Shown here one piece after another: positions 21,444 to 38,052 of a stretch of 55,879 nucleotides of DNA. The DNA comes from Promethearchaeati archaeon (GTDB taxonomy: Archaea; Asgardarchaeota; Heimdallarchaeia; JABLTI01). The stretch's first letter is position 1; every line of letters begins with the position of its first letter. A model generated the notes under the pieces. The model was given only the letters and a program-made list of their open reading frames with translations. It was not told where the DNA came from and ran no database searches. Location of the stretch: NCBI GenBank assembly GCA_013166835.1, contig JABLTI010000005.1, forward strand, positions 1 to 55,879. The letters are read 5' to 3'. The position numbers were made by a program, and so were the translations under genes.

Positions 21444-23297
21444 TTATGCTTTAGTAAGCAATTTCTGAAAAATATCATCAAACTTAATCATTTCTTCTTC
21501 GAAATTCCTGTAATCAAATTCATCCTTTATGTCTGCTGACCGTTTAGAGCCAACAATACAAATTGATTTCCCTTTACTAAGACCATCATGATTAATAATA
21601 TGATTAGGGAGAATAGTGAAAGATTCACCTAATAGTACTGGTGAAATGTTTTCTGCTGGCAAAAATTCTACATAGGTATCTATCTCAGGGTGATTTTCTA
21701 AAGCATCTTCGGAAACAAAAAATGATACAATAGCAGAATGCTCAACTAATAATCTATTATTCTCAAGAAATACGTGACTAATCATATCGGAAACATTTTT
21801 CTCAAAAAGATATGTTACATCACCAAAAGAGATGAATGAAAACTTATTCCCGGCATTTGATAATTGAACGTGTAGCTCGGACAATCTAGTCATAGAAAAT
21901 AATTTCCCGATATTTTGACCTAGAATTTTCATGTAATCAAATGATTGTGAGATATTTTTAATTGCTTCAGGAAATATTCCTTGTTTTCTGAAAAGCTCTG
22001 CTTGAGTGTTGTAATATACGGCATTAAGCTTTGGAGGAACGGGTGCTATGAGTTCTTTAGTTCCCTTTTTCAGCAATTGTTCTGCACGTTTAATTCGACC
22101 AATGAGAGCATTAATCCAAGCACTCAATAAATTGATTTCAGTTAGTTTCAATTGATTTTTACTTATTTGATAAAATCTGTAAGCTTCTCGAGCAAATTTA
22201 AGTGATTTTAGAAGTGAAGTTCGATAATCTTCATCCTGAAAAGTATAAGATGGAAAAGCCATCATCAAGTACAATTCAGCTTTAGCTAATGCCAATCGTC
22301 CATTGAGGTTCTCTGTAGGTTCACTTTTCTGGAATTCTTCCATAATTATTCGTTCTATATTTTCATAAATTCCTAATGCTTTGTAAAACCAACCTTGTTG
22401 AGAATAAATAAAACCAAGATCAAATAAACCATCAACGTGTAGTTTCCTCATTAAAATTGATTTTCGCTTACTAAATCGGAGATACTTAATCCCGCGATTC
22501 AAATACTCCTCAGCTAAAGCCAACTTATTAAATGCAACAAGATATCTACCAGAAATTAAGAGTGTCATACTCATTACATTCATTATATCTGGTCTTTTCC
22601 CAGTTGTAGATAATTTCACGCATTCAAGCAAATAGCTTTTGAACTCCTCCAAATCAATTTCTGGAGTTGTTTCTAATTCTATCATACTAACTATGCTAAG
22701 AAGATCGACATCGATTTTATAATGTTCATTGTAATTGTGTTTAGTAGCGTTATTTTTTAGTACTTCAATAATCCTAAGAGATCTTTCAGCATTGATGTTC
22801 AACCAGAACCAACCGAATCTTAGAAGAACCATGAACAGAGACTTATTCCCAGCAGCTTTTTCTTTAGTGGAGCTTAAACGTTTAATGGAATCTTCTGTAA
22901 TCAATTCCAAGACATTAGGTTGTAAAATTGAAATAGGTTCTAAATTTGCATCTTTACAGACTCTAGTGATCTTATCCTCTGCCGCAGATTCAAAACCTTC
23001 TGTCCCAATTATAACAAATCTTTGGGCAGAGATTTTTTCTTTCGTTCGAGAGAGAAAATTTCTTCTAAATAACAATTCATTTTCATCTGTCATCTCAAGT
23101 GCAGATGCAAACGTAGCAATCCAACCTTTTTCTTCAGCTATCCTAACATGATACAAGATATTTTGTCTGCTCATCTCTGTTGGGAGAATTTTCTCAGCAA
23201 TAAATCTAATCTGCTGAGTATTTGCTACACCCAAATATCTCACACAGGTTGCAATAAACCGTGACCAGAAAAATTTGGAACGTGTGGCAAAAGTCAT
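21444..23297 (-). CDS. Putative N-terminal wHTH plus TPR-repeat protein
   Basis: MSRQNILYHVRIAEEKGWI helix-turn-helix-like segment; TPR-like DLGFIYSQQGWFYKAL and YYNTQAELFRKQGIFPEA. Confidence 0.55.
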   Translation of the reverse strand: MTFATRSKFFWSRFIATCVRYLGVANTQQIRFIAEKILPTEMSRQNILYHVRIAEEKGWIATFASALEMTDENELLFRRNFLSRTKEKISAQRFVIIGTEGFESAAEDKITRVCKDANLEPISILQPNVLELITEDSIKRLSSTKEKAAGNKSLFMVLLRFGWFWLNINAERSLRIIEVLKNNATKHNYNEHYKIDVDLLSIVSMIELETTPEIDLEEFKSYLLECVKLSTTGKRPDIMNVMSMTLLISGRYLVAFNKLALAEEYLNRGIKYLRFSKRKSILMRKLHVDGLFDLGFIYSQQGWFYKALGIYENIERIIMEEFQKSEPTENLNGRLALAKAELYLMMAFPSYTFQDEDYRTSLLKSLKFAREAYRFYQISKNQLKLTEINLLSAWINALIGRIKRAEQLLKKGTKELIAPVPPKLNAVYYNTQAELFRKQGIFPEAIKNISQSFDYMKILGQNIGKLFSMTRLSELHVQLSNAGNKFSFISFGDVTYLFEKNVSDMISHVFLENNRLLVEHSAIVSFFVSEDALENHPEIDTYVEFLPAENISPVLLGESFTILPNHIINHDGLSKGKSICIVGSKRSADIKDEFDYRNFEEEMIKFDDIFQKLLTKA

Positions 23298-23449: not shown

Positions 23450-26400
23450 TTATTTTAGTGGTAATTGGCAAATTGCAGCAACAAATTCATCATTTTGATC
23501 AATTTTAGCTTTTAGCTCTAATTGGGATTTTCCTTTCAAATGAGTTTTCAGAAATTGATTGTCTATTGTAGAGATTTTGGTCGAATCGATTTCTAATACA
23601 ATTTCTTTATCTTTGATTTTACTGATAATTAAATCATGAAGATCAATTTTCAATCCAGTTCCAAGTACTTTAGAAGCGGCTTCTTTTGCGACCCAAATTT
23701 TGGTTAGGAGTTCCTCATTGATTTCTTTTTGCTGATTATTAATGAGTTCTTTTTCTTTTGAACTAATTAATTCGTCAACGAAAGAATTATCTCGCTTCAC
23801 TTTGATTTCTAAATCAATACCAGTATTGTTATTTGGATCAACGATCCCAACAGCGAAACCATTGCTGTGAGTAATTGATAAGCTAATATGTTTTTTATTT
23901 AGAATTATGAAGGGTTTACCCTGCTCATTCTTTTCGATTTTAATTTTGGATAATTGTATGTTAGGATTGATTTTCCTTAAAGCTAATTTTATAGCAATTA
24001 CACCGGCAATCCATTCTTTTCTTCTTTTTTCAACTGTAAGAGATTCATATTTTGTTTTCTCATCTGCATGAAGGAATTTATCCAAGTAATCATTTTCAGA
24101 TTCAATTTTCTTGCTTAATTGTTCTACATTAACTACTTCAAGAATTGCTTCTTTTGGTATCTCAAAGAGACGCCTTAATCGTTCAATTTGAATTTCTTGA
24201 GCTTGACTAATTTCTGCTCCAAAATCAACTTGAACTGTAGAGTACTCTTCTGCTTTTAGTAAAACTTGTCCTGTTTTTGATAAAACTTCAAAATTATAGA
24301 TACTACCAAGTTCTGAATCTTTTATCTTTGAACCTCGGATGAAAGCTGCTGGTTCTGTAGCTTTGTTAATGACGAGTGATTTAATTCCAAATGGTAAACC
24401 TAATTTACTATTCTTTATTATATCAAGTAATCCCATTGATTGGAATGCTGATTCTATGATTAGGGGATCAATAGTAAAACCTTTGTTCTCAAAACTGAAT
24501 TGGTTTTTATCACTTGTAGAAACTTTGGTAATAATATCTTGTTTGAAATCATTGATTTCTCTGAGAACATGGAATAATGGCCCATGTGGGAGAATACTAT
24601 AAATTGTTTCTTTACTAACTAATTCTTTTGGATGAAGTTTTGGTTTTGTAGCGGATTCTTCCTTTCTACTGCCCAGGATTACTTCTGCTGTGAAGTGAGT
24701 ATTTGGCTTCCCTACTACAGCGCCATCTTTTATAAATTCCGAGAATATTACGCACTTCGGATTTTTAGTGGAATAATCAATACGTGTTTTTAGGATTCGA
24801 GATTTGTCATTTGTAAATTTAATAGCGGATTTGAATTCAACATCATTAAATCCAACAAGCTTCGCTTTTGGAAATGCAATTTTTGTTAGTTCTGCGAATA
24901 TCTCAAGACCGATTACGCCAGGGAGAAATGGAATATTATCGAATCTATGATGATTTAAGTAAAGATCATCCTCAAGTGAAAAGTTCCTTTCAGTTACTAT
25001 AGATCCATCATAGTTTCGTTTGATTTTTCCAATAAGTGGATACAACTTCTTATCGACAGACAGATATTTGGAAGGTGATTCCATTAAAATGCCAATTTTA
25101 CCTGCAATAACTACTTCTGGTTCTAAGCCGAATTCAAGTTCATTGATGAAAGCCTTTACTCCGTCTTTGACTGTTATAGGAGTAACTCCAGCATGTTTCA
25201 AGATAGTCATAACAGAACCTCTTGTTGCCATACCTACTTCTCCCCAAGCAGACCAACAAATTGAAGTTGCACGAATGCCTGTGGACCTTAATTGCCAGCA
25301 ATTTTTGGAAAGATAATCATTGGCAGCGGAATAATCAACTTGCCCAGCATTTCCATATCTACCAGCAACAGAAGAGAAGCATTTGATGAATTTAACCTTC
25401 TTCAAGTTCACATTTTGAAGTAAATTGTCTAAACCAATAGCTTTCACATTATAGACTAAATCAAATTCCTCTGGTTTTTTATCTTTAATTAATCGGGATA
25501 TCTCTAATCCAGCACCATGAATTATTCCAATAATTTCTTGATTAAAATCTAATCTGATTTGATCTATAGTAGATTTCATTTGCTCAGGATTAACAACATT
25601 AGTGGTATAATATTTCACTTCAGATCCGAGAGAAGCTAGTTCTTCTTTTGCTTTCTCTATATCAATTGCTTTACTGATTTTAGACCATTCTTTCTCAATT
25701 AAAACAGGAGTGACTCTATCATTGTTTTGTTTGAGATCACTAATCAATTGTTCTTTTAGTTGAGCTAACCTTTCTTGATCATATTTAGCAATTTCAGTGA
25801 TTTTATCAGGTAATTCTTCAATACCTATTAACGCTAATTTTAGTTGATATTTTCTTGCCAATTCCCTAGTAATTTCATATGTGATACCTAATGCACCACC
25901 AGTAATCAAAACTAATTCGTCTTTTGCGATTGTAAATGGTTGTTCAGTAGGTTCGATAGGAGATTCCACTGTAATGAAAACTTTTCTCTTGCCTTCTTCT
26001 GTATAGGAAACCTCAAGAGATCCATCTCCAGCATACAACTCTTCAATAGCAAATTTAGGATTACTACAAGAAACACACTTGACAATACTATTGGTAAACT
26101 CTCGAGCAATTGCTTTAGTTAAACCTGTAAGGGAACCAGAAATAGGAGAGTATTTTCCTTCCCAGCCAAAGGAGGTTTCTGTCTTGCATATTGTTAAAAT
26201 CATAGGTGATTCAGAATATTTTACATCACGACAAAGGGTAAAGAAGATTCTTGCTGTTCTATCATGTTTATTACTTTGAGTTGTTTTTGGTTCAATGTAA
26301 ATTAGACCATCAATTACTTCTTCAGGTAATTCTTTGAGTATTTTGTCTCGAGTATTTTGGCTTTTCAAATCGATATGTTTTACTAATATAACTTTTTTAT

Positions 26401-29400
26401 TTTCTAATTGAGCAATTATCTCATTTGTAAATGGACTTGCTTCACCCGCAACTATGAACTTCTTATCCTTTAATTTTAGTTTTTCAATTTTAGGCATTGG
26501 GGCATCGATTAATTGCAAAGTTAAGCGTTGAGCAGGGACATAATCATCTTTGATTTCAGATACTGTAGTTGCAATTGCTGCTGTGGATGGTTGTAGAGCT
26601 TTATCAATTCGACTAAGAATGTAATCAGCAATTTTATTGACAGTAGAATAATCCTGTATCTGTATACCTTCTTCTCGAGGAAGATTCCATTTCGATCTAA
26701 TAATTCCAAGCATTTCAGCTTGTTTGACAGTATCAATCCCAAGATCTTCTTCTAATTCCATATCAGATTCTATCATATCTGCAGGATAACCTGTTTTTTC
26801 AGCAATTAAACTCAATACTTCATGAATGATTTCATCTTTCTTCCCTTCAAGGCTAACCACTTGTTCACCTTTCACTTCTGCAGAAGGTTGTGCTACAGAA
26901 GTTTGTGCTTCAGATGGTTTGGCTATAGGTGAGGTTATTTTCGAAGCAAGATAAGCAGCTATTTTGTTTACTGTGGAATAGTCTTGTATTCTAACACCTT
27001 CTTCTCGAGGTAGATCATATTGAGTTCTAAAAATACCAAAAAGCTCCGCCTGTTTGACTGTATCTATTCCAAGATCTTCTTCCAGATTCATATCAGGTTC
27101 AATCATATCAGAGGGATAGCCAGTTTTTTCTGATATCAGATCAATTATACTTTTAACAATTGCTCCATTAGCAACTACTCCTTTTAAAGGAATTGAAACT
27201 GGAAAAACTTGTTCTTGTTTTACAATTGATGGGTCTTCTTTTAATCGTAAAGTTCTTTTTACAACTTCAAGGGTTTTTCTACTTCCACCAATATCGTTTA
27301 ACCATTGCCCATATGCTTGTCCTTCTAGTCGTCCACTTGAAGTGTTTAGTCTAAAGAGTGCCATTGTTAATTGGGAACCAAAACCAGCTGCGAATCTTAG
27401 CGCATATTTAACATTGTATTTTCCACCTTTGGATAGATTCAGTGGTCCTAATTCTGGATCAAGTTCTTTCCAATTAGCTACAGGTGGAACAATACCTTTC
27501 TCAAGGATCTTAATTGCTACAACGTCTTCTATCCCTGCACCCATTGCGTGACCTGTAAATCCTTTGGTATTAGCTATTACTATTCTATCTAACATTGAGC
27601 CAAATGTTTTCCTTAATGCATCAACTTCAGCAGAAGCACTTCCACCTCGAGCTGGAGTATAAGTTTCATGACTAACAAATACCATTTCCTTAGCCATTTC
27701 CTCTCGAGAGATATTGAATCTTCTCTCGATTATAGAGATGAATTCATCCATTTGCGAAGAAATGTGCTCTCTATCTAATCTTGTTCCATGAAATGCTGAA
27801 TTAACAATATGAGTCCCAAGGAGATCCACAATTGGTTTTATTCCTCGAGTTTGAATTGCTGATTCCGACTCAATAATTACACCGACAGCACCCATTCCAA
27901 TGATCATTCCATGTCGTCTTTTATCGAATGGTAATGCTGCTTCTTTCACATCCTCTTTTGTAGTTGCTGCACCGACAGCTAGGAAACCAGAAGAAATCCA
28001 TTCCAACATTTCCTCATTAGTTACATCATCTGCTGCAATTACAATTACTCGCTGACATCTCCCAGTTCTAATCCAATCTTCAGCAATAGCTATAGCTTGT
28101 GTTGTAGAGGAACATGCAGCATTAACTTGTGTGTTTGGACCTCTCGCTCGTATGAATTGAGCGAATTGTGAGTGACCCATTGATAAAATCTCGAAAAGGA
28201 ATTTCCTACTAAATTGGAATCTTGAGTCTTTATCAGATGTGATTTGTGTTTTATTCTCTTGATACCACTGCAGCATTCGATCCTTTGATTTCTTATCTGA
28301 AATTTGTTCAATTAATTCATCAAATAATAAGTGAATTTCTTCTTTGTTTTTAGTTTTATATTTATCAGCTAGAAATTCAGAAAGAACTGAAATTAAATTA
28401 CTGTAAGCTGGAAAAGCAGAAGCAAATACAATTCCAGTTTCATTTCTAAGTGATTCTGGAAGTGCCCAACCCTTGACTATTTCCTTACCAACAGAGGTTT
28501 TCACTTTTAGTGGCATTAAAGGTATGCCAGCATCTCTTAGTGCCTCGATTCCAGCAGCAAACGCTAATTGGAAAGTGATATCCAATAAATCGGTAAAATC
28601 AGCATCCACACCATATTCTTTTGATAGATCAAATTGACCCTTTTGAGCTGCAAGTTTAATTACTTCTCCAACATCAGAAATTGTTTGGAATTGCGCACCA
28701 TTGACTGCATCTTTTACTAATCTTACAATGTTCTTATCAACCATCTTCTCACGCATATTCATTGGGATAAGATCAATGAAATTCTCTCCAGCAAGGATGT
28801 CATCAAAGTTTGAATCCCCGAAAACTTTCCTATCCTTACCTGGAAGACCGATTGAGATACCTGTAATTCCAATTGCTTCAGTATTGATGTTTAGTTTATC
28901 AAATTCTCTTTTCTCTTTTAGAGCTTCAGCAATTGTGCTTTTGTAGGTGTCAAATCCCGCTTTTAGAAATGCTCGAATAGCTGGGGCTTGTAATTCTAAA
29001 TAATCTGTGAAAGAGTCATCACTGATAACTTCGACAAGTTCTTGTGTTTCTAGAACATCAAAAGGTGATTCCTTGTGTATTATTTGAGTTCTTGTTTCTA
29101 TGGGTGGCGACACAGCAGAAACAAGTTGTTGTTTTGGTTTCTTTTCCAAAAATCTCTCAAGTGGTTTTTTGAATTCTTGAGTATAAAATGAATCGTCTAG
29201 TTTTGGAATCTTTAATGGAAATCCAAAAGATCCTAAAGCAGCAATCACTTCACTTAGATGTTGCATTTCACCCTTCTTAGGGTGACATGCTGCTAGTGCA
29301 ATAAAGTCATTCTTATCTTCTAATATTGCTCGTGCAAAACTCGTTAGTACATATTTAGGACCAATTTCAATAAAGGTTCTAACTCCTTCTTTCTCATACA

Positions 29401-32400
29401 TATTGACTATTTGCTTTTGCCATTCAACAGGAGAAGATACTTGCTTACACAATAATGGAACTATTTTGTCTCTTCCTTCTGGATAAATTTCACCAGTTAC
29501 GTTACTTGAAATTGGAATTATCGATTTATTATAAGTTAGAGGCTCAATCGATTTTCTGTATGCTTGAATAGCAGGTTTCACAATGTCAGAGTGAAAAGCA
29601 GCTGATACAGGTAAAGGAATTGCAGTTATACCTTCTTCAGTAAACAATTTTATTGCTTCTTTTATTGCAGATGATGCTCCAGATATAACAGTTTGTTTTG
29701 GTGAATTCTTATTAGCAGCAATCACATAACCTTTAACTTTCTTCAGTATCTTCTCTACTTGTTCATACCCAGCACCAACACCTGCCATCATTCCTTTATC
29801 CATTGCTTGGAGTGAAGCCATTGCTTGACCTCTTGGAATAATAGCTAATATTCCATCTCTGAAACTAAATATTCCTGAAGCAACCAATGCTGCATATTCA
29901 CCCATACTGTGTCCTGCCACAAAATCAGGTTTTATTCCAAATTGAATTAGAAGTCTGAATATGGCTATATCAAGAACGAAAATTGCTGGTTGAGTTATTT
30001 CTGTTTGCTTTAATAACTCTATTACTTCTTCATCACTTTTGTTTACAGCGAAAATAATCTCTGAGATTTTGAAACCTAACAACTCTTCCATTATTTCATC
30101 TGCTTCTTTGAATGTGGAACGAACAATTTCGAATCTTTCGTAAAGTTCTCTACCCATTCTAACATATTGGCTTCCTTGTCCTGGAAATAGAAAAGCAATT
30201 TTTCCGAGTTTGTGATCTTCGCCATAAAATATTCCCTTATTTCTCAGAATGGTTCGTTTCTCTTTGCTTTTCAAGCCACTCAATAATTGATCAATTGAAC
30301 TTGATAATTCAGTTAATGAGTTACAAGTAATTCCAGCTCTAACAGGTTTCTTAAGTGATTTAGTTGAATCAAAAGCAATTTCCCGAACACGTGGACCTAT
30401 ACCATCAATCGCAAAACTACTTGATATTTGTTTATTCTTAAGCTCAAGAATGCTTTTCTCTAATTCAGCTTCGGTTTCTCCACCAAAGAATATTGCATCG
30501 GTTTCTAGTGTTTTATATTGTTTCAAATACTCTTGCCATTTTTCTTGATTCAAAATTATATCAAATTCTTGTTTTACTGGAGAAACATCTGGAGAAATCT
30601 TGACACCAGCTAATAATCTTTGTAATTCTGATGGGCTAATAAGTGTTGGTAGATGACCTTTGGTTTTACCAGGAATATATTCTTCTATAATTGTATGGTA
30701 ATTTGTTCCACCAAACCCGAAGGAGGAAACTCCTGCAATACGTGTTCCTGTTTTTGGTTCAATCCATTTTTGACTCTTAGTATTGACAAAAAATGGTGAG
30801 ATATCCCAATTGATGTTTGGATTTGGAATCTCAAAATTAATTGAAGGAGGTAATATTTTGTGATGGAGAGCTAAAGCGACTTTAATTAATGAAGCAATTC
30901 CGGCAGCACTTTTAAGATGACCAATTTGACTTTTTATTGAACCAAGAGCAATAGATGAATAAGGAGCTTTTTCTGCGAGTTCATTTAGAACTTGTAATTC
31001 TATTACATCTCCAACAGTAGTACTGGTTCCGTGGGCTTCGACCAATTGAAGATCAGAAAAGACCACATCAGCTTGGTCTAAAGCTCTTTGTATTGCTAAT
31101 TTTTGACCAATAGGATTTGGAGCAGTAATTCCCTTACCTTTTCCATCAGAAGAGGAACCAAGACCTCTTACTACAGCATAAATTTTATGTCCATCTTTAA
31201 TAGCGTCAGATAATCGTTTAAGGACAATAAAACCAGCTCCTTCACCCATTACAAAACCATTTGCTCGTTTATCAAATGGGTAAGAACCATCGGCTGCTAA
31301 AGCCCCTATTTTAGAGAATTTTATAAAAGTTGTTGGATCAAGAGAACAATCAGCTCCACCACAAAGAGCAATGTCACATTCTTTATCCAGAAGTCCTTTA
31401 GCTGCAACGTTTAATGCAGCTAAGCTGGATGCACATGCTGCGTCTGTCGTCATATTTTTACCACGTAGATTGAAGACATTAGCAATTCTACCTGCAATAA
31501 CATTCGATAATTCTCCAGGCATTGAATCTTCATTTAATGGTTTCAATCGCAAATCAAAATCATCTTCTACAAATCTCTTGATGTCAGCCCATAGTTTGGG
31601 ATCCATGTCTTTGAAAGAGGATGATCTTTCAATTGCGTTAAAAGTTTCTGGGAGAAAGATTCTTCTTGAATAATGAGAACGAATTTCATCACCCATTGAA
31701 TTACCAATTATTATTGCGGTATTACTATGATCTACAGTTTTCCCAAGCAATCCTGCATCCATTAAAGCTTCTTTCGCTGCTACAAGAGCGAATTTCTGCA
31801 CTTCGCCCATTGTTATGGCAACTTTAGGTGGAATTTTAAATTCCAAGGAATCAAATGTGAAGTTTTTAATTGTAGCTGCAATTTTTGCATAAGTTTTGCC
31901 AGGGGCATTTCTATCCGCACTATAAAATAAGTCTAAATCATTTAACCAACGTTCTTTGGGTATTTCATGTATAGAATTCACTTTCTTCTTAATATTCTTC
32001 CAATAAGTCTCAATATTTGGAGCGTCAGGTAAAACACATCCAAGACCAATTATCGCTACACCTTCTCCCTCGAATATTTCTGTATTTACTATTTGTGAAT
32101 TTGACTCCACAGTAATCGTTTGTTGCTGTATTACAGGTTGTTTGGTTATTTTGGACATTTTCTCGAATTTTTCAAGTAATTCTGTAATTCTACCCATTAG
32201 CACTTTCTGTGAATTTCCAACTAATTCTTTATGTAAATGATCGATAGATCTTATACAACGAAGACTCGTGACAATTTGACCAATAAGGTAATTTCCTTTT
32301 TGGTACTGAATTTTTTCATCAACATACATGAATCTATTTGGTTTATCATCTTCTCCATCTGGATTCCAAATTTCTCCAAGTGCAGCAATTCTTGTTGCTC

Positions 32401-34249
32401 CTAGATTGTCTCTTTCATACTGATGTTTTCTCTCTTTTAATGGAACACCTTGTTCTATTCTATCGTGTTCTCTTTTTATAATTTCACGAGCACATGGTGT
32501 TGGTATTGATCTTGCTCGAGTGTTTACAGTATCGCCTAAAACCATTGTTTCCTTAGCGTTGAGAGCTAATTGCTGATATAATGGTTGAATTGCACCTGTC
32601 CCAACGATTTCTTTAACTAGAATGTATGCGGAACCAACCCACATTATTCCATTCATTAATTTTGGCAATGCTGATGCAATAATTCCTGCAATTGCTGCAG
32701 AAAATCTATCACCAATTCCACCTGCAAATGCTACAGTTACTTTTTGATTGCTTTGCTCAATAGACTCTTTTTGTTGTATTAGTTGATGTAAAGAAAGCTC
32801 CCACAAAACAAAACTGGTTAAGAAACCAATATGACCACCACATTCCATTCCTTCCAGAACGAGATTTTTAACATCTGATTTGATAGCTTCTGCAAAAATA
32901 ATTGGAGACGGTGTATGAAGAAACGTCTTAATTCCATAACTCATTACTTCTTTCGCATGATCAATAGTTCCAGCAGCTACAACAGCAAATGAAGGCTTAG
33001 TTTCTTTCAATATTTCAAGGTGTGCATCTCGAGCAGTTTTATTTGCATCCAAACAAATAATTCCACAACCAAATGGTTTTCCACCTAATTTTTCTTTTGT
33101 CTTTTTAATGAGAGTTCTGGTTTGATTTGGGAAAAGTGATCCTAAAGCTAGGATTGGTAATGCGCCTGCGTCGGAAATAACTTTAGCAAAAGTGGGATTT
33201 TCAGAAATATTTGCCATTGGACCTTGAATAATTGGGTATTTGATTCCTAATTCTTTTGCAATTTCATTTTTTTTCCTAAATGGATAATTTGTAACTGCAT
33301 TCCTGATTTGCTTCTCAGTTTGCTTCAATAATCCGTTAATTATTCCTAATACATTAGAAAACTTACTAGTCAGAATTTTGGCAAAAGGAACATCTTGTCC
33401 TAGTGGAATTAAACAATTAGAAAGATCATCTTTTTCAAACATCTCTCTTTGAGATAATAATTGTTCAGTGAATTGTTTTGTTCTTTCCTTCTTAGTTAGT
33501 TTAAGCAATTCCTTTTCTTTCTGTTGGAATTCTTTGACGACTCTTGTTCCTAATCTTGCATATACTCGGTATTTATTTTTGGTTGATTCACCTAGTACTT
33601 TAGTATCAGTCGCATCTAATTTTTCTATAAATTCTTTTGCATTTTTAGATAAGGGACTTTCAGGTGTAAGGTACAACTGTGAATCAAGAATGACCCCTTT
33701 AGCTCCTATACCAATAATTGCTGGAACAGTGTATAAACCCATACCACCTTGAATTATGAATGGTAATCCTGCATCAGCGAATTGCTGAGATAGAATAAAT
33801 GAAGTTTCATCACCAACACGACCTGCTGCTTCATTGCCTTTTACAATAAATGCCTGAGCCCACTTCTTCTCATATGCTTCTTTTAGAGAAATTACTTCGG
33901 CTAATAATACAATTGATTTTTTAGATGCATTGTTCAAATCACTTTTTGTTAATTGAAAATCACCAATTACAAGGATTAATGGAAAAGAGTCATTGTGGAG
34001 TTTTAAAACTAAATCTAGTTGTTCGTGATCACAAACCCTGACCCCAAAAGAACTTGTAAATTCTGTCAAACTGTTCTGTAAGAGTTGTTCTGATTCTTGT
34101 TGAAGAAGTCGTTCCAAGTCAACAAAACCAATTCCACCTGCATTTATGACTGCTTTAACTAAACTAGTGTTTAGCAATCCAGGGGGATTATATGCAAAAA
34201 TTGGTTTACGTTCACTTATGATAGATTCAAAATCATATTTTGGTGCCAT
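23450..34249 (-). CDS. Type I FAS/PKS megasynthase (Pfa-like): ER-ER-KS-AT-KS-ACP-ACP-KR-DH-PPTase, 3599 aa
   Basis: Two FabK/PfaD-like FMN barrels (KGNEAAG; YPIIQGPM, EGMECGGH). KS1 DAAC939, EAH1073GTST, GHLK. AT FPGQGSQ, GHS1448MG, AFHS. KS2 NAAC2046, SH2194ETY, GHAMG. Two LGIDTVKQAE ACPs. KR TGGALGI, SSVAG.YGN.GQ.DY. DH H3101RFDNIPFLPG. PPTase SITHS, GIDLE, WVAKEA. Confidence 0.93.
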   Translation of the reverse strand: MAPKYDFESIISERKPIFAYNPPGLLNTSLVKAVINAGGIGFVDLERLLQQESEQLLQNSLTEFTSSFGVRVCDHEQLDLVLKLHNDSFPLILVIGDFQLTKSDLNNASKKSIVLLAEVISLKEAYEKKWAQAFIVKGNEAAGRVGDETSFILSQQFADAGLPFIIQGGMGLYTVPAIIGIGAKGVILDSQLYLTPESPLSKNAKEFIEKLDATDTKVLGESTKNKYRVYARLGTRVVKEFQQKEKELLKLTKKERTKQFTEQLLSQREMFEKDDLSNCLIPLGQDVPFAKILTSKFSNVLGIINGLLKQTEKQIRNAVTNYPFRKKNEIAKELGIKYPIIQGPMANISENPTFAKVISDAGALPILALGSLFPNQTRTLIKKTKEKLGGKPFGCGIICLDANKTARDAHLEILKETKPSFAVVAAGTIDHAKEVMSYGIKTFLHTPSPIIFAEAIKSDVKNLVLEGMECGGHIGFLTSFVLWELSLHQLIQQKESIEQSNQKVTVAFAGGIGDRFSAAIAGIIASALPKLMNGIMWVGSAYILVKEIVGTGAIQPLYQQLALNAKETMVLGDTVNTRARSIPTPCAREIIKREHDRIEQGVPLKERKHQYERDNLGATRIAALGEIWNPDGEDDKPNRFMYVDEKIQYQKGNYLIGQIVTSLRCIRSIDHLHKELVGNSQKVLMGRITELLEKFEKMSKITKQPVIQQQTITVESNSQIVNTEIFEGEGVAIIGLGCVLPDAPNIETYWKNIKKKVNSIHEIPKERWLNDLDLFYSADRNAPGKTYAKIAATIKNFTFDSLEFKIPPKVAITMGEVQKFALVAAKEALMDAGLLGKTVDHSNTAIIIGNSMGDEIRSHYSRRIFLPETFNAIERSSSFKDMDPKLWADIKRFVEDDFDLRLKPLNEDSMPGELSNVIAGRIANVFNLRGKNMTTDAACASSLAALNVAAKGLLDKECDIALCGGADCSLDPTTFIKFSKIGALAADGSYPFDKRANGFVMGEGAGFIVLKRLSDAIKDGHKIYAVVRGLGSSSDGKGKGITAPNPIGQKLAIQRALDQADVVFSDLQLVEAHGTSTTVGDVIELQVLNELAEKAPYSSIALGSIKSQIGHLKSAAGIASLIKVALALHHKILPPSINFEIPNPNINWDISPFFVNTKSQKWIEPKTGTRIAGVSSFGFGGTNYHTIIEEYIPGKTKGHLPTLISPSELQRLLAGVKISPDVSPVKQEFDIILNQEKWQEYLKQYKTLETDAIFFGGETEAELEKSILELKNKQISSSFAIDGIGPRVREIAFDSTKSLKKPVRAGITCNSLTELSSSIDQLLSGLKSKEKRTILRNKGIFYGEDHKLGKIAFLFPGQGSQYVRMGRELYERFEIVRSTFKEADEIMEELLGFKISEIIFAVNKSDEEVIELLKQTEITQPAIFVLDIAIFRLLIQFGIKPDFVAGHSMGEYAALVASGIFSFRDGILAIIPRGQAMASLQAMDKGMMAGVGAGYEQVEKILKKVKGYVIAANKNSPKQTVISGASSAIKEAIKLFTEEGITAIPLPVSAAFHSDIVKPAIQAYRKSIEPLTYNKSIIPISSNVTGEIYPEGRDKIVPLLCKQVSSPVEWQKQIVNMYEKEGVRTFIEIGPKYVLTSFARAILEDKNDFIALAACHPKKGEMQHLSEVIAALGSFGFPLKIPKLDDSFYTQEFKKPLERFLEKKPKQQLVSAVSPPIETRTQIIHKESPFDVLETQELVEVISDDSFTDYLELQAPAIRAFLKAGFDTYKSTIAEALKEKREFDKLNINTEAIGITGISIGLPGKDRKVFGDSNFDDILAGENFIDLIPMNMREKMVDKNIVRLVKDAVNGAQFQTISDVGEVIKLAAQKGQFDLSKEYGVDADFTDLLDITFQLAFAAGIEALRDAGIPLMPLKVKTSVGKEIVKGWALPESLRNETGIVFASAFPAYSNLISVLSEFLADKYKTKNKEEIHLLFDELIEQISDKKSKDRMLQWYQENKTQITSDKDSRFQFSRKFLFEILSMGHSQFAQFIRARGPNTQVNAACSSTTQAIAIAEDWIRTGRCQRVIVIAADDVTNEEMLEWISSGFLAVGAATTKEDVKEAALPFDKRRHGMIIGMGAVGVIIESESAIQTRGIKPIVDLLGTHIVNSAFHGTRLDREHISSQMDEFISIIERRFNISREEMAKEMVFVSHETYTPARGGSASAEVDALRKTFGSMLDRIVIANTKGFTGHAMGAGIEDVVAIKILEKGIVPPVANWKELDPELGPLNLSKGGKYNVKYALRFAAGFGSQLTMALFRLNTSSGRLEGQAYGQWLNDIGGSRKTLEVVKRTLRLKEDPSIVKQEQVFPVSIPLKGVVANGAIVKSIIDLISEKTGYPSDMIEPDMNLEEDLGIDTVKQAELFGIFRTQYDLPREEGVRIQDYSTVNKIAAYLASKITSPIAKPSEAQTSVAQPSAEVKGEQVVSLEGKKDEIIHEVLSLIAEKTGYPADMIESDMELEEDLGIDTVKQAEMLGIIRSKWNLPREEGIQIQDYSTVNKIADYILSRIDKALQPSTAAIATTVSEIKDDYVPAQRLTLQLIDAPMPKIEKLKLKDKKFIVAGEASPFTNEIIAQLENKKVILVKHIDLKSQNTRDKILKELPEEVIDGLIYIEPKTTQSNKHDRTARIFFTLCRDVKYSESPMILTICKTETSFGWEGKYSPISGSLTGLTKAIAREFTNSIVKCVSCSNPKFAIEELYAGDGSLEVSYTEEGKRKVFITVESPIEPTEQPFTIAKDELVLITGGALGITYEITRELARKYQLKLALIGIEELPDKITEIAKYDQERLAQLKEQLISDLKQNNDRVTPVLIEKEWSKISKAIDIEKAKEELASLGSEVKYYTTNVVNPEQMKSTIDQIRLDFNQEIIGIIHGAGLEISRLIKDKKPEEFDLVYNVKAIGLDNLLQNVNLKKVKFIKCFSSVAGRYGNAGQVDYSAANDYLSKNCWQLRSTGIRATSICWSAWGEVGMATRGSVMTILKHAGVTPITVKDGVKAFINELEFGLEPEVVIAGKIGILMESPSKYLSVDKKLYPLIGKIKRNYDGSIVTERNFSLEDDLYLNHHRFDNIPFLPGVIGLEIFAELTKIAFPKAKLVGFNDVEFKSAIKFTNDKSRILKTRIDYSTKNPKCVIFSEFIKDGAVVGKPNTHFTAEVILGSRKEESATKPKLHPKELVSKETIYSILPHGPLFHVLREINDFKQDIITKVSTSDKNQFSFENKGFTIDPLIIESAFQSMGLLDIIKNSKLGLPFGIKSLVINKATEPAAFIRGSKIKDSELGSIYNFEVLSKTGQVLLKAEEYSTVQVDFGAEISQAQEIQIERLRRLFEIPKEAILEVVNVEQLSKKIESENDYLDKFLHADEKTKYESLTVEKRRKEWIAGVIAIKLALRKINPNIQLSKIKIEKNEQGKPFIILNKKHISLSITHSNGFAVGIVDPNNNTGIDLEIKVKRDNSFVDELISSKEKELINNQQKEINEELLTKIWVAKEAASKVLGTGLKIDLHDLIISKIKDKEIVLEIDSTKISTIDNQFLKTHLKGKSQLELKAKIDQNDEFVAAICQLPLK

Positions 34250-34295: not shown

Positions 34296-35903
34296 TTAAA
34301 GGGGTACATTCCCGTGTTTTTTGTTTAGCTTTCGTTCTCTCTTTCGTAATAAAGGCCATAATGCGGCTATCAATTTTTGACGAGTCTCACTTGGGATTAT
34401 AACATCATCAATATAGCCTTTCTCAGCTGCAAGATATGGATTATTAAATTCTTCGGCATAATCATCCTTCAAATCAGCCATCAAGTCCTCTTGATTCTCA
34501 GCTGCTGCTAGTTCTCTTCTGTATAGAATTTGAACAGCGCCCTCTGAACCCATAACAGCGATTTCTGCTGTTGGCCAAGCAAAATTCATGTCATTTGCTA
34601 AATGCTTTGAACCCATAACAATGTAAGCCCCACCATAGGCTTTTCTTGTAATAACAGTTAATTTTGGAACAGTAGCTTCTGCATAAGCAAAGATAAGTTT
34701 TGCACCATGTTTAATTATTCCATTGTGTTCTTGGTCTAATCCAGGTAGGAATCCTGGCACATCAACAAAAGTGAGAATAGGAATATTGAACGCATCACAG
34801 AAACGAATGAAACGAGCCGCTTTAACTGAAGCATTGATATCTAAAGCTCCTGCAAGGATACTTGGTTGATTAGCGACGATCCCTATTGGGTGTCCATTTA
34901 ATCTACCAAATCCAATAATGATATTTTGAGCATACTTTTTCTGTATTTCTAAAAAGTTACCTCGATCAACAACTCGAAGAATTATTTCTCTCATATTGTA
35001 TGGTTCTTGGGGATCACTGGGTATAATTGAATTTAGTTCTTCAAGAACATACCCATTTATAGTTGAAGTATCTTTCAAAGGAGGATCTTCTAAATTGTTG
35101 GAAGGTAAATAAGAGAGAAGCGCTTTGATGAGCTCAATGGATTCAATCTCATCGGAACCGACCAGATGAGCAATCCCAGATAGCGAACTATGTGTGGACG
35201 CTCCACCGAGTTCTTCAAAGGACGCTTCCTCTCCAGTCACAGATTTTACTACTGTGGGACCAGTGACAAACATATAAGAAGTATCTTCTGTCATGATGAC
35301 AAAATCTGTAAGAGCTGGGGAGTATACTGCACCACCAGCAGATGGACCGACAATACAAGATATTTGAGGAATAATTCCAGAAGCACGAACATTTCTTATG
35401 AAAATGTCTCCGTAACCTGCTAAAGAATTAGCTCCTTCTTGAATTCTTGCTCCACCAGAATCATTAAAACCTATAACTGGTGCACCATTTTGCACTGCTT
35501 GATCCATTAATTGAGTTATTTTTTTAGCGTGAGCTTCACCAAGACTTCCACCGAGAATAGTAAAATCTTGACTATAGACATAAATTAGTTTACCATTTAC
35601 TTGACCGAAACCTGTAATTACACCATCTGTGTATATTTTCTTTTTATCTAAACCGAAATTTCTGCTATTATGTCTTACAAACATATTGGTTTCTGTGAAT
35701 GAACCTGGATCAAGTAACAAATCTATTCTTTGACGAGCTGTTAGTTTACCTTTTGCTAACTGCTTCTGAATAGCTTCTTCTCCGCCACCTAATAGAGCTT
35801 CTTCCCTTTTTTCAATTAATTTGTTTATTTTTTTCTTTGATGAGTCCTCTTCAGACAGCATATCATCTGCCCTTTCAAGCTCTGATTTCAAATTCATATT
35901 CAT
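34296..35903 (-). CDS. pccB: Acyl-CoA carboxylase carboxyltransferase subunit (PccB/AccD-like)
   Basis: GKLTARQRI, QDFT.LGGSLG, DSGGARIQEG, DVPGFLPG..QE, KAYGGAY, KKHGNVPL. Confidence 0.92.
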   Translation of the reverse strand: MNMNLKSELERADDMLSEEDSSKKKINKLIEKREEALLGGGEEAIQKQLAKGKLTARQRIDLLLDPGSFTETNMFVRHNSRNFGLDKKKIYTDGVITGFGQVNGKLIYVYSQDFTILGGSLGEAHAKKITQLMDQAVQNGAPVIGFNDSGGARIQEGANSLAGYGDIFIRNVRASGIIPQISCIVGPSAGGAVYSPALTDFVIMTEDTSYMFVTGPTVVKSVTGEEASFEELGGASTHSSLSGIAHLVGSDEIESIELIKALLSYLPSNNLEDPPLKDTSTINGYVLEELNSIIPSDPQEPYNMREIILRVVDRGNFLEIQKKYAQNIIIGFGRLNGHPIGIVANQPSILAGALDINASVKAARFIRFCDAFNIPILTFVDVPGFLPGLDQEHNGIIKHGAKLIFAYAEATVPKLTVITRKAYGGAYIVMGSKHLANDMNFAWPTAEIAVMGSEGAVQILYRRELAAAENQEDLMADLKDDYAEEFNNPYLAAEKGYIDDVIIPSETRQKLIAALWPLLRKRERKLNKKHGNVPL

Positions 35904-35974
35904 ATCTCCTGTTCACAGTCTAATGCCAAACTGTATACTGAAACGACCTTTAGCTAATCAAAAACGTATCTTGT

Positions 35975-36029
35975 TTTTACTGTAAAAGCATATTTTCTGA
36001 TGATTCAGCATTTTACAGTTTTACTGTAA
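35975..36029. promoter_or_regulatory. Repeated palindromic TTTTACWGT sites in the divergent pccB/accC promoter
   Basis: TTTTAC-T-GTAAAA (35975-35987) and TTACAGT-TTT-ACTGTAA (36013-36029); TTTTACTGTAA occurs twice. Confidence 0.5.
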
Positions 36030-36074
36030 CATATCGTTAGTCTTAATAGCAAAGCCCTTCTTGCAGAAAGTATC

Positions 36075-37547
36075 ATGTTTGATACTCTGTTAGTAGCTAA
36101 CAGAGGTGAAATTGCTGTTAGAATTATTCGAGCTGCTCGTGAGCTCGATATTAAGACTTATGCAGTTTATAGCCCTGTTGACAAGAATGCACTTCACGTG
36201 AAATTAGCAGATGAATCTTTCCCTTTAATGGAAGATGGAGTCACACCAAGTTACTTAGATATAGATCAAATATTGGCTTGCTGTTTACGTGAAAACATAA
36301 CGAGTGTTCATCCAGGATATGGTTTTCTCTCTGAGAGTGAAATCTTTGCAGAGACTTTGATTAAACATGGAGTTAATTTCATAGGACCTCCACCAAAAGT
36401 GATTGAACTTCTTGGTAATAAGGTCAAGTCTCGGGAAAAAGCAGTTGAAGTTGGTTTACCAGTCCCACTAGGATCAGAAATTATTGAAAATGAGAGACAT
36501 GGGATTAAAGAGGCTAGATTAATCGGTTATCCAGTTCTTGTAAAAGCAGTTTTTGGTGGGGGTGGAATGGGCATTCAACGAGCCAGAACACCCAGAGAGT
36601 TGAGAATTGCAATATCAAATGCAAGTGCACAAGCGAAGTCTGCTTTTGGACGAGGAGATGTTTTCTTAGAGAAATTTATTGAGCAACCAAGACACATTGA
36701 ATTTCAAATTCTTGCAGATAACTATGGAAATGTAGTTCACTTAGGAGAAAGAGAATGCTCAATTCAAAGAAGAAATCAGAAATTACTTGAGGAAGCTCCA
36801 TCCACAGCAATCTCCAAAGAAGAAAGAAAAAGCATTGGAACTTTGGTTTGTAAACTTGCGAAAAAATTAGGGTATAAAAGTGCTGGAACAATTGAATTTC
36901 TGTACAAGGATAATCAAGTTATGTTTAATGAAATTAATCCACGAATTCAAGTTGAACATCCTGTTACTGAAATGTTAACTGGAAAGGATATTGTAAAAGA
37001 ACAAATCAAAATAGCTCAAGGAGAAGAATTATCTTTTAAGCAATCTGACATCAAATTCAGAGGTCATGCAATGGAACTTCGGATAAACGCTGAGGATCCA
37101 TTACAGAATTTTCAACCTACTCCAGGGTACGTCAGTAGATTTGTAGCTCCCGGTGGACCGCATATTAGATTTGACACAGCTATTTACGAAGGATATGAAA
37201 TTCCTGATTGTTATGATTCATTAATTGGAAAATTAATTGTAAGTGCAGAATCTCGGGAAGAAGTAATCTCCCGGGCGCAGAATGCTCTAAAAGAACTAAT
37301 TATTATTGGTTTCCCAAACAACATTACATTCTTTGATCAGCTGCTTCAAGATCGACACTTCCAGCAAGGAGACATTAGTATCAACTTCATAGAAGATAGA
37401 AAGATCCTTATGAAATTGGAAAAGAACGTTTGTGCGTTAGCTTCAGCCTTATTTGCTGTTGGACTAAAGAAAAGCCAAATGAATTTACCCAGCCTTTCAG
37501 AAAATTGGCGAATGAAAGGAAAGATGGATGGAATTGGGAGGGACTAA
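36075..37547 (+). CDS. accC: Biotin carboxylase subunit
   Basis: ANRGEIA.R, HPGYGFLSE, KAV.GGGG.G, ERECSIQRRNQK, RIQVEH, YDS.IGKL. Confidence 0.93.
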   Translation: MFDTLLVANRGEIAVRIIRAARELDIKTYAVYSPVDKNALHVKLADESFPLMEDGVTPSYLDIDQILACCLRENITSVHPGYGFLSESEIFAETLIKHGVNFIGPPPKVIELLGNKVKSREKAVEVGLPVPLGSEIIENERHGIKEARLIGYPVLVKAVFGGGGMGIQRARTPRELRIAISNASAQAKSAFGRGDVFLEKFIEQPRHIEFQILADNYGNVVHLGERECSIQRRNQKLLEEAPSTAISKEERKSIGTLVCKLAKKLGYKSAGTIEFLYKDNQVMFNEINPRIQVEHPVTEMLTGKDIVKEQIKIAQGEELSFKQSDIKFRGHAMELRINAEDPLQNFQPTPGYVSRFVAPGGPHIRFDTAIYEGYEIPDCYDSLIGKLIVSAESREEVISRAQNALKELIIIGFPNNITFFDQLLQDRHFQQGDISINFIEDRKILMKLEKNVCALASALFAVGLKKSQMNLPSLSENWRMKGKMDGIGRD

Positions 37548-37549
37548 TA

Positions 37550-38026: not shown

Positions 38027-38052
38027 CGAATTAAAACAGGAAGAAATCAAGT

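Follow-up and report, generated by a model that had tools for sequence, protein, structure and literature searches.

We find that a single polypeptide encoded by an archaeon of the Heimdallarchaeia carries two ketosynthase domains around one acyltransferase (AT), and that the second of these ketosynthases (KS2) keeps every catalytic residue and is therefore probably a second catalytically competent enzyme. The window that we analyzed is the whole 55,879-nucleotide stretch of contig JABLTI010000005.1. The reading that we favor, and that we hold to be somewhat better than an even bet, is that the window encodes a self-contained, iterative, PUFA-synthase-like 'Type R' fatty acid synthase (FAS) of type I in which KS2 would be a second decarboxylative, FabF-like elongating ketosynthase.

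The synthase is a single 3599-aa ORF (23450-34249, minus strand) that contains the whole 27350-32070 region and has the domain order ER-ER-KS1-AT-KS2-ACP-ACP-KR-DH-PPTase (Table 1). Pfam places ketoacyl-synt in two stretches of the ORF with exactly one Acyl_transf_1 match (residues 1353-1647) between them, and it detected neither a cis thioesterase nor a separate loading domain or starter AT in the ORF. Thus, two features of the original prediction, a pair of ketosynthases flanking a single AT and the absence of a cis thioesterase, are borne out by the Pfam domain set. The AT has the motifs GHSMG, with Ser1448, and AAFH, the latter of which we take to be malonyl-specific, and scores 246.5 bits against the TIGR00128 FabD model, below its cut-off of 260.9. 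In the enoyl-reductase (ER) region, Pfam NMO matches in three stretches and TIGR03151 FabK matches residues 327-597. Note that the DH assignment is a weak one, as PKS_DH_N and PS-DH score 25.1 and 26.2 bits, close to their cut-offs.

Table 1. Features of the megasynthase ORF and of its neighborhood in the window.
Feature	Position	Strand	Description
Whole megasynthase ORF	23450..34249	-	3599 aa, Pfam and curated models
Enoyl-reductase region	32459..33970	-	residues 94-267 and 327-597, two NMO/FabK-like modules that appear to lie in tandem
KS1	30614..32065	-	residues 729-1212, PfaA/type-I-PKS-type by sequence; C939, H1073, K1106, H1111
AT, sole acyltransferase, presumably malonyl-type	29309..30193	-	residues 1353-1647, Pfam Acyl_transf_1 (1 stretch)
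KS2	27335..28882	-	residues 1790-2305, divergent FabF-like KS; C2046, H2194, E2195, K2229, H2234, F2290
ACP1	26948..27148	-	residues 2368-2434, Pfam PP-binding
ACP2	26600..26803	-	residues ~2483-2550, second PP-binding stretch
KR	25241..25912	-	residues 2780-3003, Pfam KR and adh_short
DH, PKS-type	24227..25039	-	residues 3071-3341, Pfam PKS_DH_N and PS-DH
4'-phosphopantetheinyl transferase (PPTase), C-terminal	23582..24037	-	residues 3405-3556, Pfam ACPS and 4PPT_N; NF042922 HetI-type
Acyl-CoA carboxylase carboxyltransferase subunit	34296..35903	-	directly upstream of synthase, same strand; Pfam Carboxyl_trans E 2.5e-194
Biotin carboxylase	36075-37547	+	divergent from synthase operon
Biotin carboxyl carrier protein	37430-38026	+	divergent from synthase operon
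Alpha/beta-hydrolase, candidate trans release enzyme	38053..38856	+	Pfam Hydrolase_4, Abhydrolase_1, BAAT_C (E 6.4e-07)
Biotin protein ligase	38860..39624	-	Pfam BPL_LplA_LipB, BPL_C

The Cys-His-His motifs of both ketosynthases, with their codons checked, read exactly as the original prediction had them. For KS1 these are TDAAC (C939, 31433-31435), EAHGTST (H1073) and IGHLK (H1111), and this triad is invariant in all 62 rows of the family alignment. KS1 is covered in Pfam by the N- and C-terminal ketoacyl-synt models and by KAsynt_C_assoc, its residues 731-1198 are the best stretch of the TIGR02813 PfaA match, and its profile searched against the PDB retrieves type I PKS ketosynthases together with 6riw_A, named 'ORF10' (8.7e-99). 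By these matches KS1 is a ketosynthase of the PfaA/type-I-PKS type.

The motifs of KS2 are VNAAC (C2046, 28112-28114), SHETYT (H2194, 27668-27670) and TGHAMG (H2234, 27548-27550). When solved FabF chains are aligned with HMMER, their catalytic Cys, His, His and Lys fall on the KS2 Cys, both His and the Lys of an NTK motif, and the Thr-x-Thr of FabF is present as well. Conservation was counted over 254 rows (253 near-full-length domains out of 262 proteins with a KS2 match, plus the query, after nine partial ones were dropped; one of the rows, P0006, holds the protein encoded in the window). Across these rows the Cys is found in 253, the Lys and each His in 254, and the gate Phe in 252, a retention of the triad that, judged from this alignment, is more than chance. 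The constraint on KS2 also equals that on KS1: over 61 loci from about 10 phyla, identity to the window spans 51-58% in KS2 and 44-57% in KS1, and the two domains have the same mean column identity of 69%. An invariant Glu (E2195) directly follows the first catalytic His in all 254 rows, at a position where the aligned FabF chains have Gly or Ala, and this HE pair could reflect an altered chemistry.

KS2 had been described as divergent and as carrying an insertion. The divergence stands, with 22% identity to KS1 (BLASTP, E 0.011) and with no significant PDB sequence match for its first 240 residues; however, the insertion, a helical hairpin at model residues ~160-215 in the AlphaFold2 prediction, is not specific to KS2: a profile-profile alignment pairs it with a corresponding segment of KS1. 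The AlphaFold2 model of KS2 has a pLDDT of 87.3 and a pTM of 0.87, with pLDDT 82-94 in the 10-residue blocks that hold C257, H405, K440 and H445 of the domain. Its best Foldseek matches are FabF structures (6olt, 4jb6 and others; target-normalised TM 0.82-0.88, E ~1e-29), and every description among the matches listed, up to rank 50, is that of a ketosynthase. The KS2 profile likewise finds FabF best in the PDB (2gqd, 2.7e-30). KS2 thus shares with FabF/KAS II the Cys, both His, the Lys, Thr-x-Thr, the gate Phe and a predicted KS-like fold. It differs from FabF in its 17-23% identity, in roughly 100 extra residues that include the helical hairpin, in having HE instead of HG/HA and GFGSQ instead of GFGG, and in lying inside a megasynthase. 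KS2 alone scores 128 bits against TIGR03150 fabF, far under the cut-off of 493.75, and is therefore best regarded as a distant FabF relative rather than an equivalog.

Of the roles originally offered for KS2, the extension of long chains fits these data best, priming of synthesis is possible but less likely, and head-to-head condensation as a release step is disfavored. In the mechanism that we propose, KS1 and KS2 would draw on one malonyl-AT and on the same tandem ACPs, and elongation cycles would be split between them by chain length or by type of intermediate, with KS1 serving for priming and early cycles and KS2 for later ones, or the reverse. The two domains may form a pseudo-heterodimer in which, unlike in a KS-CLF pair, both sites work. 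Two active ketosynthases are not exceptional in this superfamily: passages of a study of PUFA synthases describe two active KSs working on one MAT and tandem ACPs in the manner proposed here, with PfaA-KS priming and carrying out early cycles and the PfaC KS-CLF the last elongations (PMC12895367). We infer by analogy with PfaA-KS and PfaC-KS that cycles are divided between KS1 and KS2; a difference is that the second KS of PUFA synthases is accompanied by a CLF, and no CLF is present here. Complex prediction is consistent with the possibility that KS1 and KS2 may pair with each other, with a weak score of 0.43 against 0.00 for the best control, contact agreement of at least 65% between runs and a partner pLDDT of at least 77. 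Of 157 solved complexes, 116 attained the mark used, as did two of 215 mismatched pairs, and those attaining it at scores of 0.60 or less comprise only 18 of the 157 solved complexes plus both of the passing mismatches. Because KS dimers have already been solved, this pass may reflect memory of those structures.

A structural role is the alternative that we find least credible. In this case KS2 would be a non-catalytic, CLF-like partner of KS1 that keeps its triad for folding or substrate binding only, as would suit the CLF label given to the domain in the description by Shulse & Allen (PMC3098273) and the weakly predicted KS1-KS2 pairing. However, the loss of the nucleophilic Cys (usually to Gln) that defines a CLF is not seen, and neither are the degenerate His positions of CLFs: because Cys, both His and Lys are retained in 253-254 of the 254 aligned domains, KS2 is not a CLF, in line with what its motifs had first suggested. 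No CLF is named on its own among the Foldseek matches listed up to rank 50, where the actinorhodin KS/CLF entry appears at rank 34 as chain A (1tqy_A, taken as the KS chain from its name in sequence alignments) with a TM in the 0.82-0.88 range seen for FabF, and no CLF-only name occurs in the best 60 of 70 PDB profile matches, in which actinorhodin is again represented by its KS chain. A priming role is also unlikely, though distinctly less so. Here KS2 would convert malonyl-ACP to acetyl-ACP, or perform the first condensation only, and leave later elongations to KS1. CLFs and KSQ domains prime by decarboxylation, a reaction that needs two His and a Lys, all of which KS2 keeps, and neither a distinct loading domain nor a starter AT is present in the ORF. 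However, priming ketosynthases and CLFs have their Cys replaced by Gln, which makes this role less likely for a domain with Cys in 253 of 254 rows, and to maintain a dedicated 515-residue domain, 51-58% identical between phyla, for just one step would be possible but uneconomical. Moreover, it is the PfaA-type KS, the type to which KS1 belongs, that is reported in passages on PUFA synthases as the decarboxylating starter (PMC12895367).

We consider it quite improbable, between these two alternatives in likelihood, that KS2 joins two acyl chains in a final Claisen, or head-to-head, condensation that doubles as release in a Pks13- or OleA-like manner. The missing cis thioesterase and the presence of two or more ACPs would accommodate such a step, and the invariant Glu beside the catalytic His could serve as an extra base, much as OleA uses a Glu. 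However, OleA-type thiolases have a Cys-His-Asn set where KS2 has Cys-His-His-Lys and a FabF-like fold, and the Pks13 model NF040607, whose cut-off is 2100 bits, scores 411.7, with its match (718-1686) covering KS1-AT and not KS2. This reading is disfavored because KS2 keeps the full decarboxylative set (His-His, Lys, Thr-x-Thr and gate Phe) and because release enzymes may be supplied in trans, candidates being the alpha/beta-hydrolase of the window and of related locus L004, the WS/DGAT genes found in 17 of 80 related loci, and PlsY, which adjoins the L004 cluster.

In domain architecture the window synthase matches the Type R secondary lipid synthases, which Shulse & Allen catalogued in PLoS One in 2011 and describe, in the passages concerned, as KS-MAT-CLF-ACP(3-6)-KR plus a PPTase, as pfaA homologues sometimes found beside an acetyl-CoA carboxylase gene, and as occurring in Koribacter, Solibacter, Elusimicrobium and Roseiflexus (PMC3098273). 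The window ORF and related loci share that KS-MAT-'CLF'-ACPn-KR core and an associated PPTase, which is fused C-terminally in the window and adjacent or fused in its relatives. Relative to that description, the window differs in its archaeal host, in the fusion of an ER (two NMO modules) and the PPTase into the same polypeptide, in having only two ACPs and a multi-subunit carboxylase, and in a 'CLF' (KS2) that keeps a full catalytic set. A likeness to PUFA synthases is seen in the KS1-AT...ACPn-KR-DH portion, which matches TIGR02813 PfaA with 918.5 bits, under the cut-off of 1010.1, in the NMO/PfaD-like ER and in the Sfp/HetI-type PPTase. In contrast to PUFA synthases, the second KS lies between the AT and the ACPs and is closest in sequence to FabF, not to type I KSs; a scan of the ORF and of 32 further window ORFs, each 150 aa or longer, found no FabA-type DH/isomerase, a domain that PfaC carries twice besides its KS-CLF, and neither a PfaB nor a Cys-less CLF was found in the ORF or the window ORFs scanned. 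Enediyne PKSEs (KS-AT-ACP-KR-DH-PPTase) are iterative and PUFA-like, contain a single KS and a single ACP, lack an ER, and make a polyene. They have in common with the window the order AT, ACP, KR, DH, PPTase and a C-terminally fused PPTase, whereas the window ORF has two KSs, two ACPs and an ER.

Relatives of this protein are widespread. Heimdallarchaeota/Asgard MAG records include homologues that are nearly full-length (3558-3615 aa) and share its Pfam set. The KS1-AT-KS2 core has 618 representative clusters at E <= 1e-30, with relatives in 518 or more stretches from species-representative genomes, and the hosts of this architecture include Heimdallarchaeia and Thermoplasmatota as well as numerous bacterial phyla. 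Related loci conserve the KS1-AT-KS2-ACPn-KR-DH core, with KS1 and KS2 in one frame in 65 of 80. KS2 is 53-56% identical to Roseiflexus- and Terriglobales-named proteins (P0097, P0100, P0115) and to a Korobacteraceae-named locus (L067). The carrier domains of the KS1-AT-KS2 family have Thr at the position of the phosphopantetheine-bearing Ser of other ACPs. In ACP1 this is Thr2397 (27059-27061, codon checked), which stands opposite the DS-Ser of solved ACPs in five of five alignments listed, and the corresponding residue of ACP2 is Thr2507 (26729-26731).

The synthase is linked to acyl-CoA carboxylase genes. In addition to the carboxylase genes of the window, a long ORF beside the synthase matches the window's biotin carboxylase in 41 of 75 bacterial loci, directly downstream in most, and the sole such ORF scanned whole (in locus L006) is an 1880-aa fused ACC. 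The product would be a long, largely saturated acyl chain, freed in trans by a hydrolase or an acyltransferase. We infer that the alpha/beta-hydrolase at 38053-38856 is a candidate for this release step; its best PDB matches are generic esterases, and homologues adjoin the synthase in L004. For the reduction step, an NMO-type ER is fused into the synthase in the window and in L004, and an acyl-CoA dehydrogenase gene lies directly upstream in 57 of the 65 bacterial loci that include 2.5 kb or more of upstream DNA, accompanied by genes for EtfA, EtfB and an FeS protein in 27-29 loci. Not every member can be assumed to make a saturated product, because no reductase partner was found in the DNA examined of the Thermoplasmatota loci and of eight of the 65 bacterial loci.

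What is new here is that the 'CLF' of the catalogued Type R architecture keeps, by alignment, a full catalytic set, and that there is an archaeal version with a fused ER and PPTase. With this 'CLF' re-read as a second ketosynthase that is active, a KS1-AT-KS2 machine must work in a different way. Every fatty-acid synthesis activity and a dedicated PPTase would be present in one archaeal polypeptide that adjoins an acyl-CoA carboxylase, in a host lineage central to the debate on the 'lipid divide' and eukaryogenesis. A broader reading, which is possible but on the doubtful side, is that KS1 and KS2 form an asymmetric pair, both catalytic, with the chain handed over at a set length, in a self-activating, ACP-dependent type I FAS native to Heimdall-type Asgard archaea and Thermoplasmatota, with a Thr-borne phosphopantetheine installed by the fused PPTase. 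If Thr really is modified as the carrier residue, a textbook post-translational modification would have a new form. The main weight of the finding lies in an ACP-dependent FAS in archaea. If the broader reading is true, some archaea near the eukaryotic stem would use a bacterial/eukaryotic-style ACP route for their fatty acids, which would contradict the view, expressed in passages of a 2024 preprint, that FAS I, FAS II and, nearly always, ACP are missing from archaea (10.1101/2024.07.05.601840).

The region at 27350-32070 falls within a single ORF of 3599 aa (23450-34249, minus strand), here called the synthase, whose domain order was read from Pfam and NCBIfam. Two conserved, intact ketosynthase (KS) domains, KS1 and KS2, are combined with one malonyl-type acyltransferase (AT), tandem ACPs, KR, DH, an enoyl reductase (ER) and a PPTase, and a carboxylase is encoded next to the ORF. 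The AT carries GHSMG and AAFH motifs and scores 246.5 bits with the FabD model against a cut-off of 260.9. No thioesterase domain was found in the ORF with Pfam or NCBIfam.

Features of the synthase, of its neighbourhood in the window and of two related loci (L006, bacterial; L004, Candidatus Heimdallarchaeum aukensis, CP084166.1)
Feature	Position	Remark
NMO/FabK-type enoyl reductase, two segments	residues 94-267 and 327-597	Pfam/NCBIfam
KS1	residues 729-1212	Pfam/NCBIfam
Acyltransferase, single	residues 1353-1647	Pfam/NCBIfam
KS2	residues ~1790-2305	Pfam/NCBIfam
ACPs, two		between KS2 and KR; Pfam/NCBIfam
KR	residues 2780-3003	Pfam/NCBIfam
PKS-type DH	residues 3071-3341	Pfam/NCBIfam
PPTase, C-terminal	residues 3405-3556	Pfam/NCBIfam
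Acyl-CoA carboxylase carboxyltransferase	34296-35903	same strand as synthase
Biotin carboxylase and BCCP	36075-38026	
Alpha/beta-hydrolase	38053-38856	
Biotin protein ligase	38860-39624	
Neighbours of the L006 synthase	L006:1158-6872 and L006:15878-21517	FeS/CCG oxidoreductase, EtfB, EtfA and ~570-aa acyl-CoA dehydrogenase before synthase; fused carboxylase after
L004 cluster	L004: 159-689, 3184-15724, 15759-19703	PlsY-type glycerol-3-phosphate acyltransferase beside cluster; two-ORF synthase; repeated neighbours

When checked by residue and by codon, the KS1 motifs TDAAC (C939), EAHGTST (H1073) and IGHLK (H1111) and the KS2 motifs VNAAC (C2046), SHETYT (H2194) and TGHAMG (H2234) are exactly those named in the original prediction. 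HMMER alignments with solved FabF chains place the Cys, both His and the Lys of NTKGFTGH in KS2 on the FabF catalytic positions. We then assessed conservation in a KS2 alignment of 254 rows, made up of the query and 253 near-full-length domains from 262 proteins with a KS2 match (nine partial domains were left out; row P0006 is the protein encoded in the window itself). The first His, the Glu after it, the Lys and the second His are each present in 254/254 rows, the Cys in 253/254 and the Phe of GFGSQ in 252/254. Judged by its residues, KS2 is thus probably a real ketosynthase, as had been proposed. The Cys, His, Lys and His of KS1 are likewise unchanged in 62/62 rows. In a comparison of 61 loci that represent about ten phyla, identity to the window is 51-58% for KS2 and 44-57% for KS1, with a mean column identity of 69% for both, indicating that constraint on KS2 is at least as strong as that on KS1. 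Note that the Glu after the first KS2 His (Glu2195, window 27665-27667) is replaced by Gly or Ala in the aligned solved FabF chains, and its invariance leaves some room for unusual chemistry.

The two domains were placed by PDB profile searches and a KS2-only tree. KS1 groups with KSs of type I PKSs and of the PUFA type, with matches to 7zma (1.4e-208) and, over the whole domain, to 6riw_A 'ORF10' (8.7e-99), which we take to be the Moritella PfaC KS-CLF (CLF, chain-length factor). The best PDB profile matches of KS2 are FabF/KAS II (2.7e-30) and cover only its C-terminal two thirds; its first 240 residues gave no significant PDB sequence match (best E 0.48). The AlphaFold2 model of KS2 has a pLDDT of 87.3 and a pTM of 0.87, with values of 82-94 in the 10-residue blocks that hold the catalytic residues, and its top Foldseek matches are FabF structures (target-normalised TM 0.82-0.88, E ~1e-29). 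Among the Foldseek matches listed, up to rank 50, the actinorhodin KS/CLF entry at rank 34 is chain A and none is an entry described as a CLF alone. The assignment of KS2 as a CLF was rejected, since loss of the Cys, which defines that class, is not the pattern in the 254 rows. Divergence of KS2, as originally described, is borne out by its BLASTP match to KS1 (22% identity, E 0.011). The insertion described along with it is no peculiarity of KS2, because hhalign aligns the two domains (probability 97.5%, E 5e-12, 20% identity across 407 columns) straight through this helical segment, which KS1 therefore shares. By features, the ESM Atlas clusters nearest to KS2 (P0004, a homologous protein) include KS clusters labelled as partly eukaryotic (Bacillariophyta/diatoms, Zoopagomycota; scores 0.93-0.96), an unverified lead that KS2-like domains may occur in eukaryotes.

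Both ACPs in the window read DLGIDTVK; in all five alignments listed, the phosphopantetheine Ser of the solved ACP falls on the Thr of this motif (Thr2397, 27059-27061, and Thr2507, 26729-26731). Thr occupies this position in 674 of the 692 ACP matches from 239 homologous proteins (Ser in 11, other residues in 7) and in 245/247 ACP matches from 73 loci, the two Ser both being in L004. Interchange of Ser and Thr at a single site, together with a dedicated PPTase that is part of the synthase or encoded beside it, suggests that the Thr is the phosphopantetheine attachment site. The phrase 'threonine instead of' was not found in phosphopantetheinylation papers among the open-access PMC/bioRxiv matches listed.

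The closest relatives of the window's synthase are proteins of 3558-3615 aa with a KS2 that is 74-96% identical and from sources named, for example, Heimdallarchaeota or Asgard group archaeon, and the next tier, at ~55%, comprises Thermoplasmatota and many bacteria. An index-free search returned 618 representative clusters at E <= 1e-30, and at least 518 relatives were confirmed in species-representative genomes. The 80 loci of the genome scan that were kept for context, a set from which the window's closest relatives are absent, span Thermoplasmatota, Heimdallarchaeum aukensis, Acidobacteriota, Actinomycetota, Myxococcota, Gemmatimonadota, Chloroflexota, Verrucomicrobiota, Bacteroidota and Pseudomonadota. 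The KS2 tree pairs the window with H. aukensis (SH-aLRT 98) and separates these two and four Thermoplasmatota from all bacteria (SH-aLRT 99). The synthase architecture matches that of the Type R secondary lipid synthase in the available text of Shulse & Allen 2011 (PMC3098273), which gives KS-MAT-CLF-ACP(3-6)-KR with a downstream PPTase, a product that is unknown, and occurrence in Koribacter, Solibacter, Elusimicrobium and Roseiflexus. The synthase is an archaeal, fully fused form of this known but uncharacterised family. The open-access PMC/bioRxiv literature searched yielded neither a later characterisation of Type R nor a reference to its occurrence in archaea; KS-AT-KS, KS-MAT-CLF or KS-AT-CLF architectures led only to Shulse & Allen, Asgard pfaA or an Asgard fatty acid synthase with a ketosynthase to nothing, and Marine Group II/Poseidoniales PKS/FAS only to reference-list mentions in one review.

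KS1 and KS2 share one frame in 65 of the 80 loci. In at least five (L012, L056, L065, L068 and L069) there is a break exactly between AT and KS2, and such loci encode KS1-AT and KS2-ACPn-KR-DH separately (e.g. L056:6259-16489, L065:6797-16384); the two stop-to-stop frames of L056 overlap by 8 bases. This splitting of the synthase in several bacterial genomes indicates that KS2 can head its own polypeptide. A long ORF beside the synthase, mostly directly downstream, matches the window's biotin carboxylase in 41/75 bacterial loci, and in L006, the sole case scanned whole, encodes a 1880-aa fused BC-BCCP-ACC_central-CT carboxylase; a PPTase usually follows. Upstream DNA of 2.5 kb or more is available for 65 bacterial loci, and in 57 of these the synthase is immediately preceded by an acyl-CoA dehydrogenase (ACAD) gene. 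Genes for EtfA, EtfB and an FeS/CCG oxidoreductase are found alongside the ACAD gene in 27-29 loci, and 17 loci contain WS/DGAT genes. An NMO-type ER match is confined to the window and L004 (0/75 bacterial loci), and ACAD/ETF may stand in for the absent ER in bacteria. From this distribution we infer that the reductase recruited by the core differs between lineages, being a fused FabK/PfaD-like ER in Heimdall archaea and probably ACAD/ETF in bacteria. By title and abstract, open-access PMC/bioRxiv yielded nothing relevant on a PUFA synthase with acyl-CoA dehydrogenase/ETF in Acidobacteria. In L004 the synthase appears as two ORFs, and a KS-AT segment occurs twice, ~2 kb apart. This repeat, whose copies have the same motif contexts and which shows a garbled end of the frame, accounts for an apparent third KS and may reflect either a genuine duplication or an error of assembly. 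The alpha/beta-hydrolase-BCCP pair is also present there in two copies, which are interspersed with and followed by one additional stand-alone PPTase gene and Csm6-HEPN genes.

In the window, the genes at 34296-39624 provide a full malonyl-CoA supply set of carboxyltransferase, biotin carboxylase, BCCP and biotin protein ligase. The best matches of the alpha/beta-hydrolase among them are generic esterases, with acyl-CoA thioesterase 4 reached only at E 6e-4, and this protein could be a candidate product-release enzyme. Immediately downstream of the synthase, and likewise on the minus strand, lies a 617-aa ORF (21444-23297) for which no Pfam family was found and which may be part of the synthase operon. 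Farther away, a TRAP-beta (translocon-associated protein) domain protein, an ArsA/Get3-type ATPase and a VTT-domain membrane protein adjoin one another at 44174-48231, and these eukaryote-like domains are consistent with the Asgard names of the closest relatives. A ThsB-like TIR domain protein (209-718), an N6/N4 DNA methylase (2692-3486) and a bactofilin-domain protein (3778-4941) lie near the window start.

Overall, the synthase is most likely an iterative fatty acid synthase (FAS) in which KS1 and KS2 would both elongate ACP-bound chains with malonyl-ACP and, by analogy, would split the elongation cycles by chain length. The PUFA synthase offers a precedent for such a division, as the available text of PMC12895367 assigns priming and early cycles to PfaA-KS and final elongation to PfaC KS-CLF, so two active KSs are not without precedent. 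The same precedent argues against KS2 as a priming domain, a role further weakened by retention of its Cys, and a non-catalytic CLF is contradicted by the conserved catalytic residues. Head-to-head condensation of two chains by KS2, suggested originally as a means of release, is the least supported of the roles proposed originally, given that KS2 retains every residue of the decarboxylative set and folds like FabF in its model, that the Pks13 model falls far short of its cut-off and has its match on KS1-AT, and that candidates for release in trans exist. Release would probably occur in trans through the alpha/beta-hydrolase, a WS/DGAT or an acyltransferase.

Prediction of the KS1:KS2 complex, a check proposed at the outset, lends weak support to a pairing, with a score of 0.43 versus 0.00 for the best control, at least 65% of contacts common to the runs and a partner pLDDT of at least 77. 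The mark applied is reached by 116/157 solved complexes and 2/215 mismatched pairs, and at scores of 0.60 or less by only 18/157 solved complexes and both passing mismatches. Since KS dimers have already been solved, the pass may reflect structures memorised by the predictor.

Archaea are stated, in the available text of 10.1101/2024.07.05.601840, to be without such ACP-dependent FAS systems. The main significance of the synthase is that it points, against this stated view, to ACP-dependent FAS in Asgard and Thermoplasmatota archaea.
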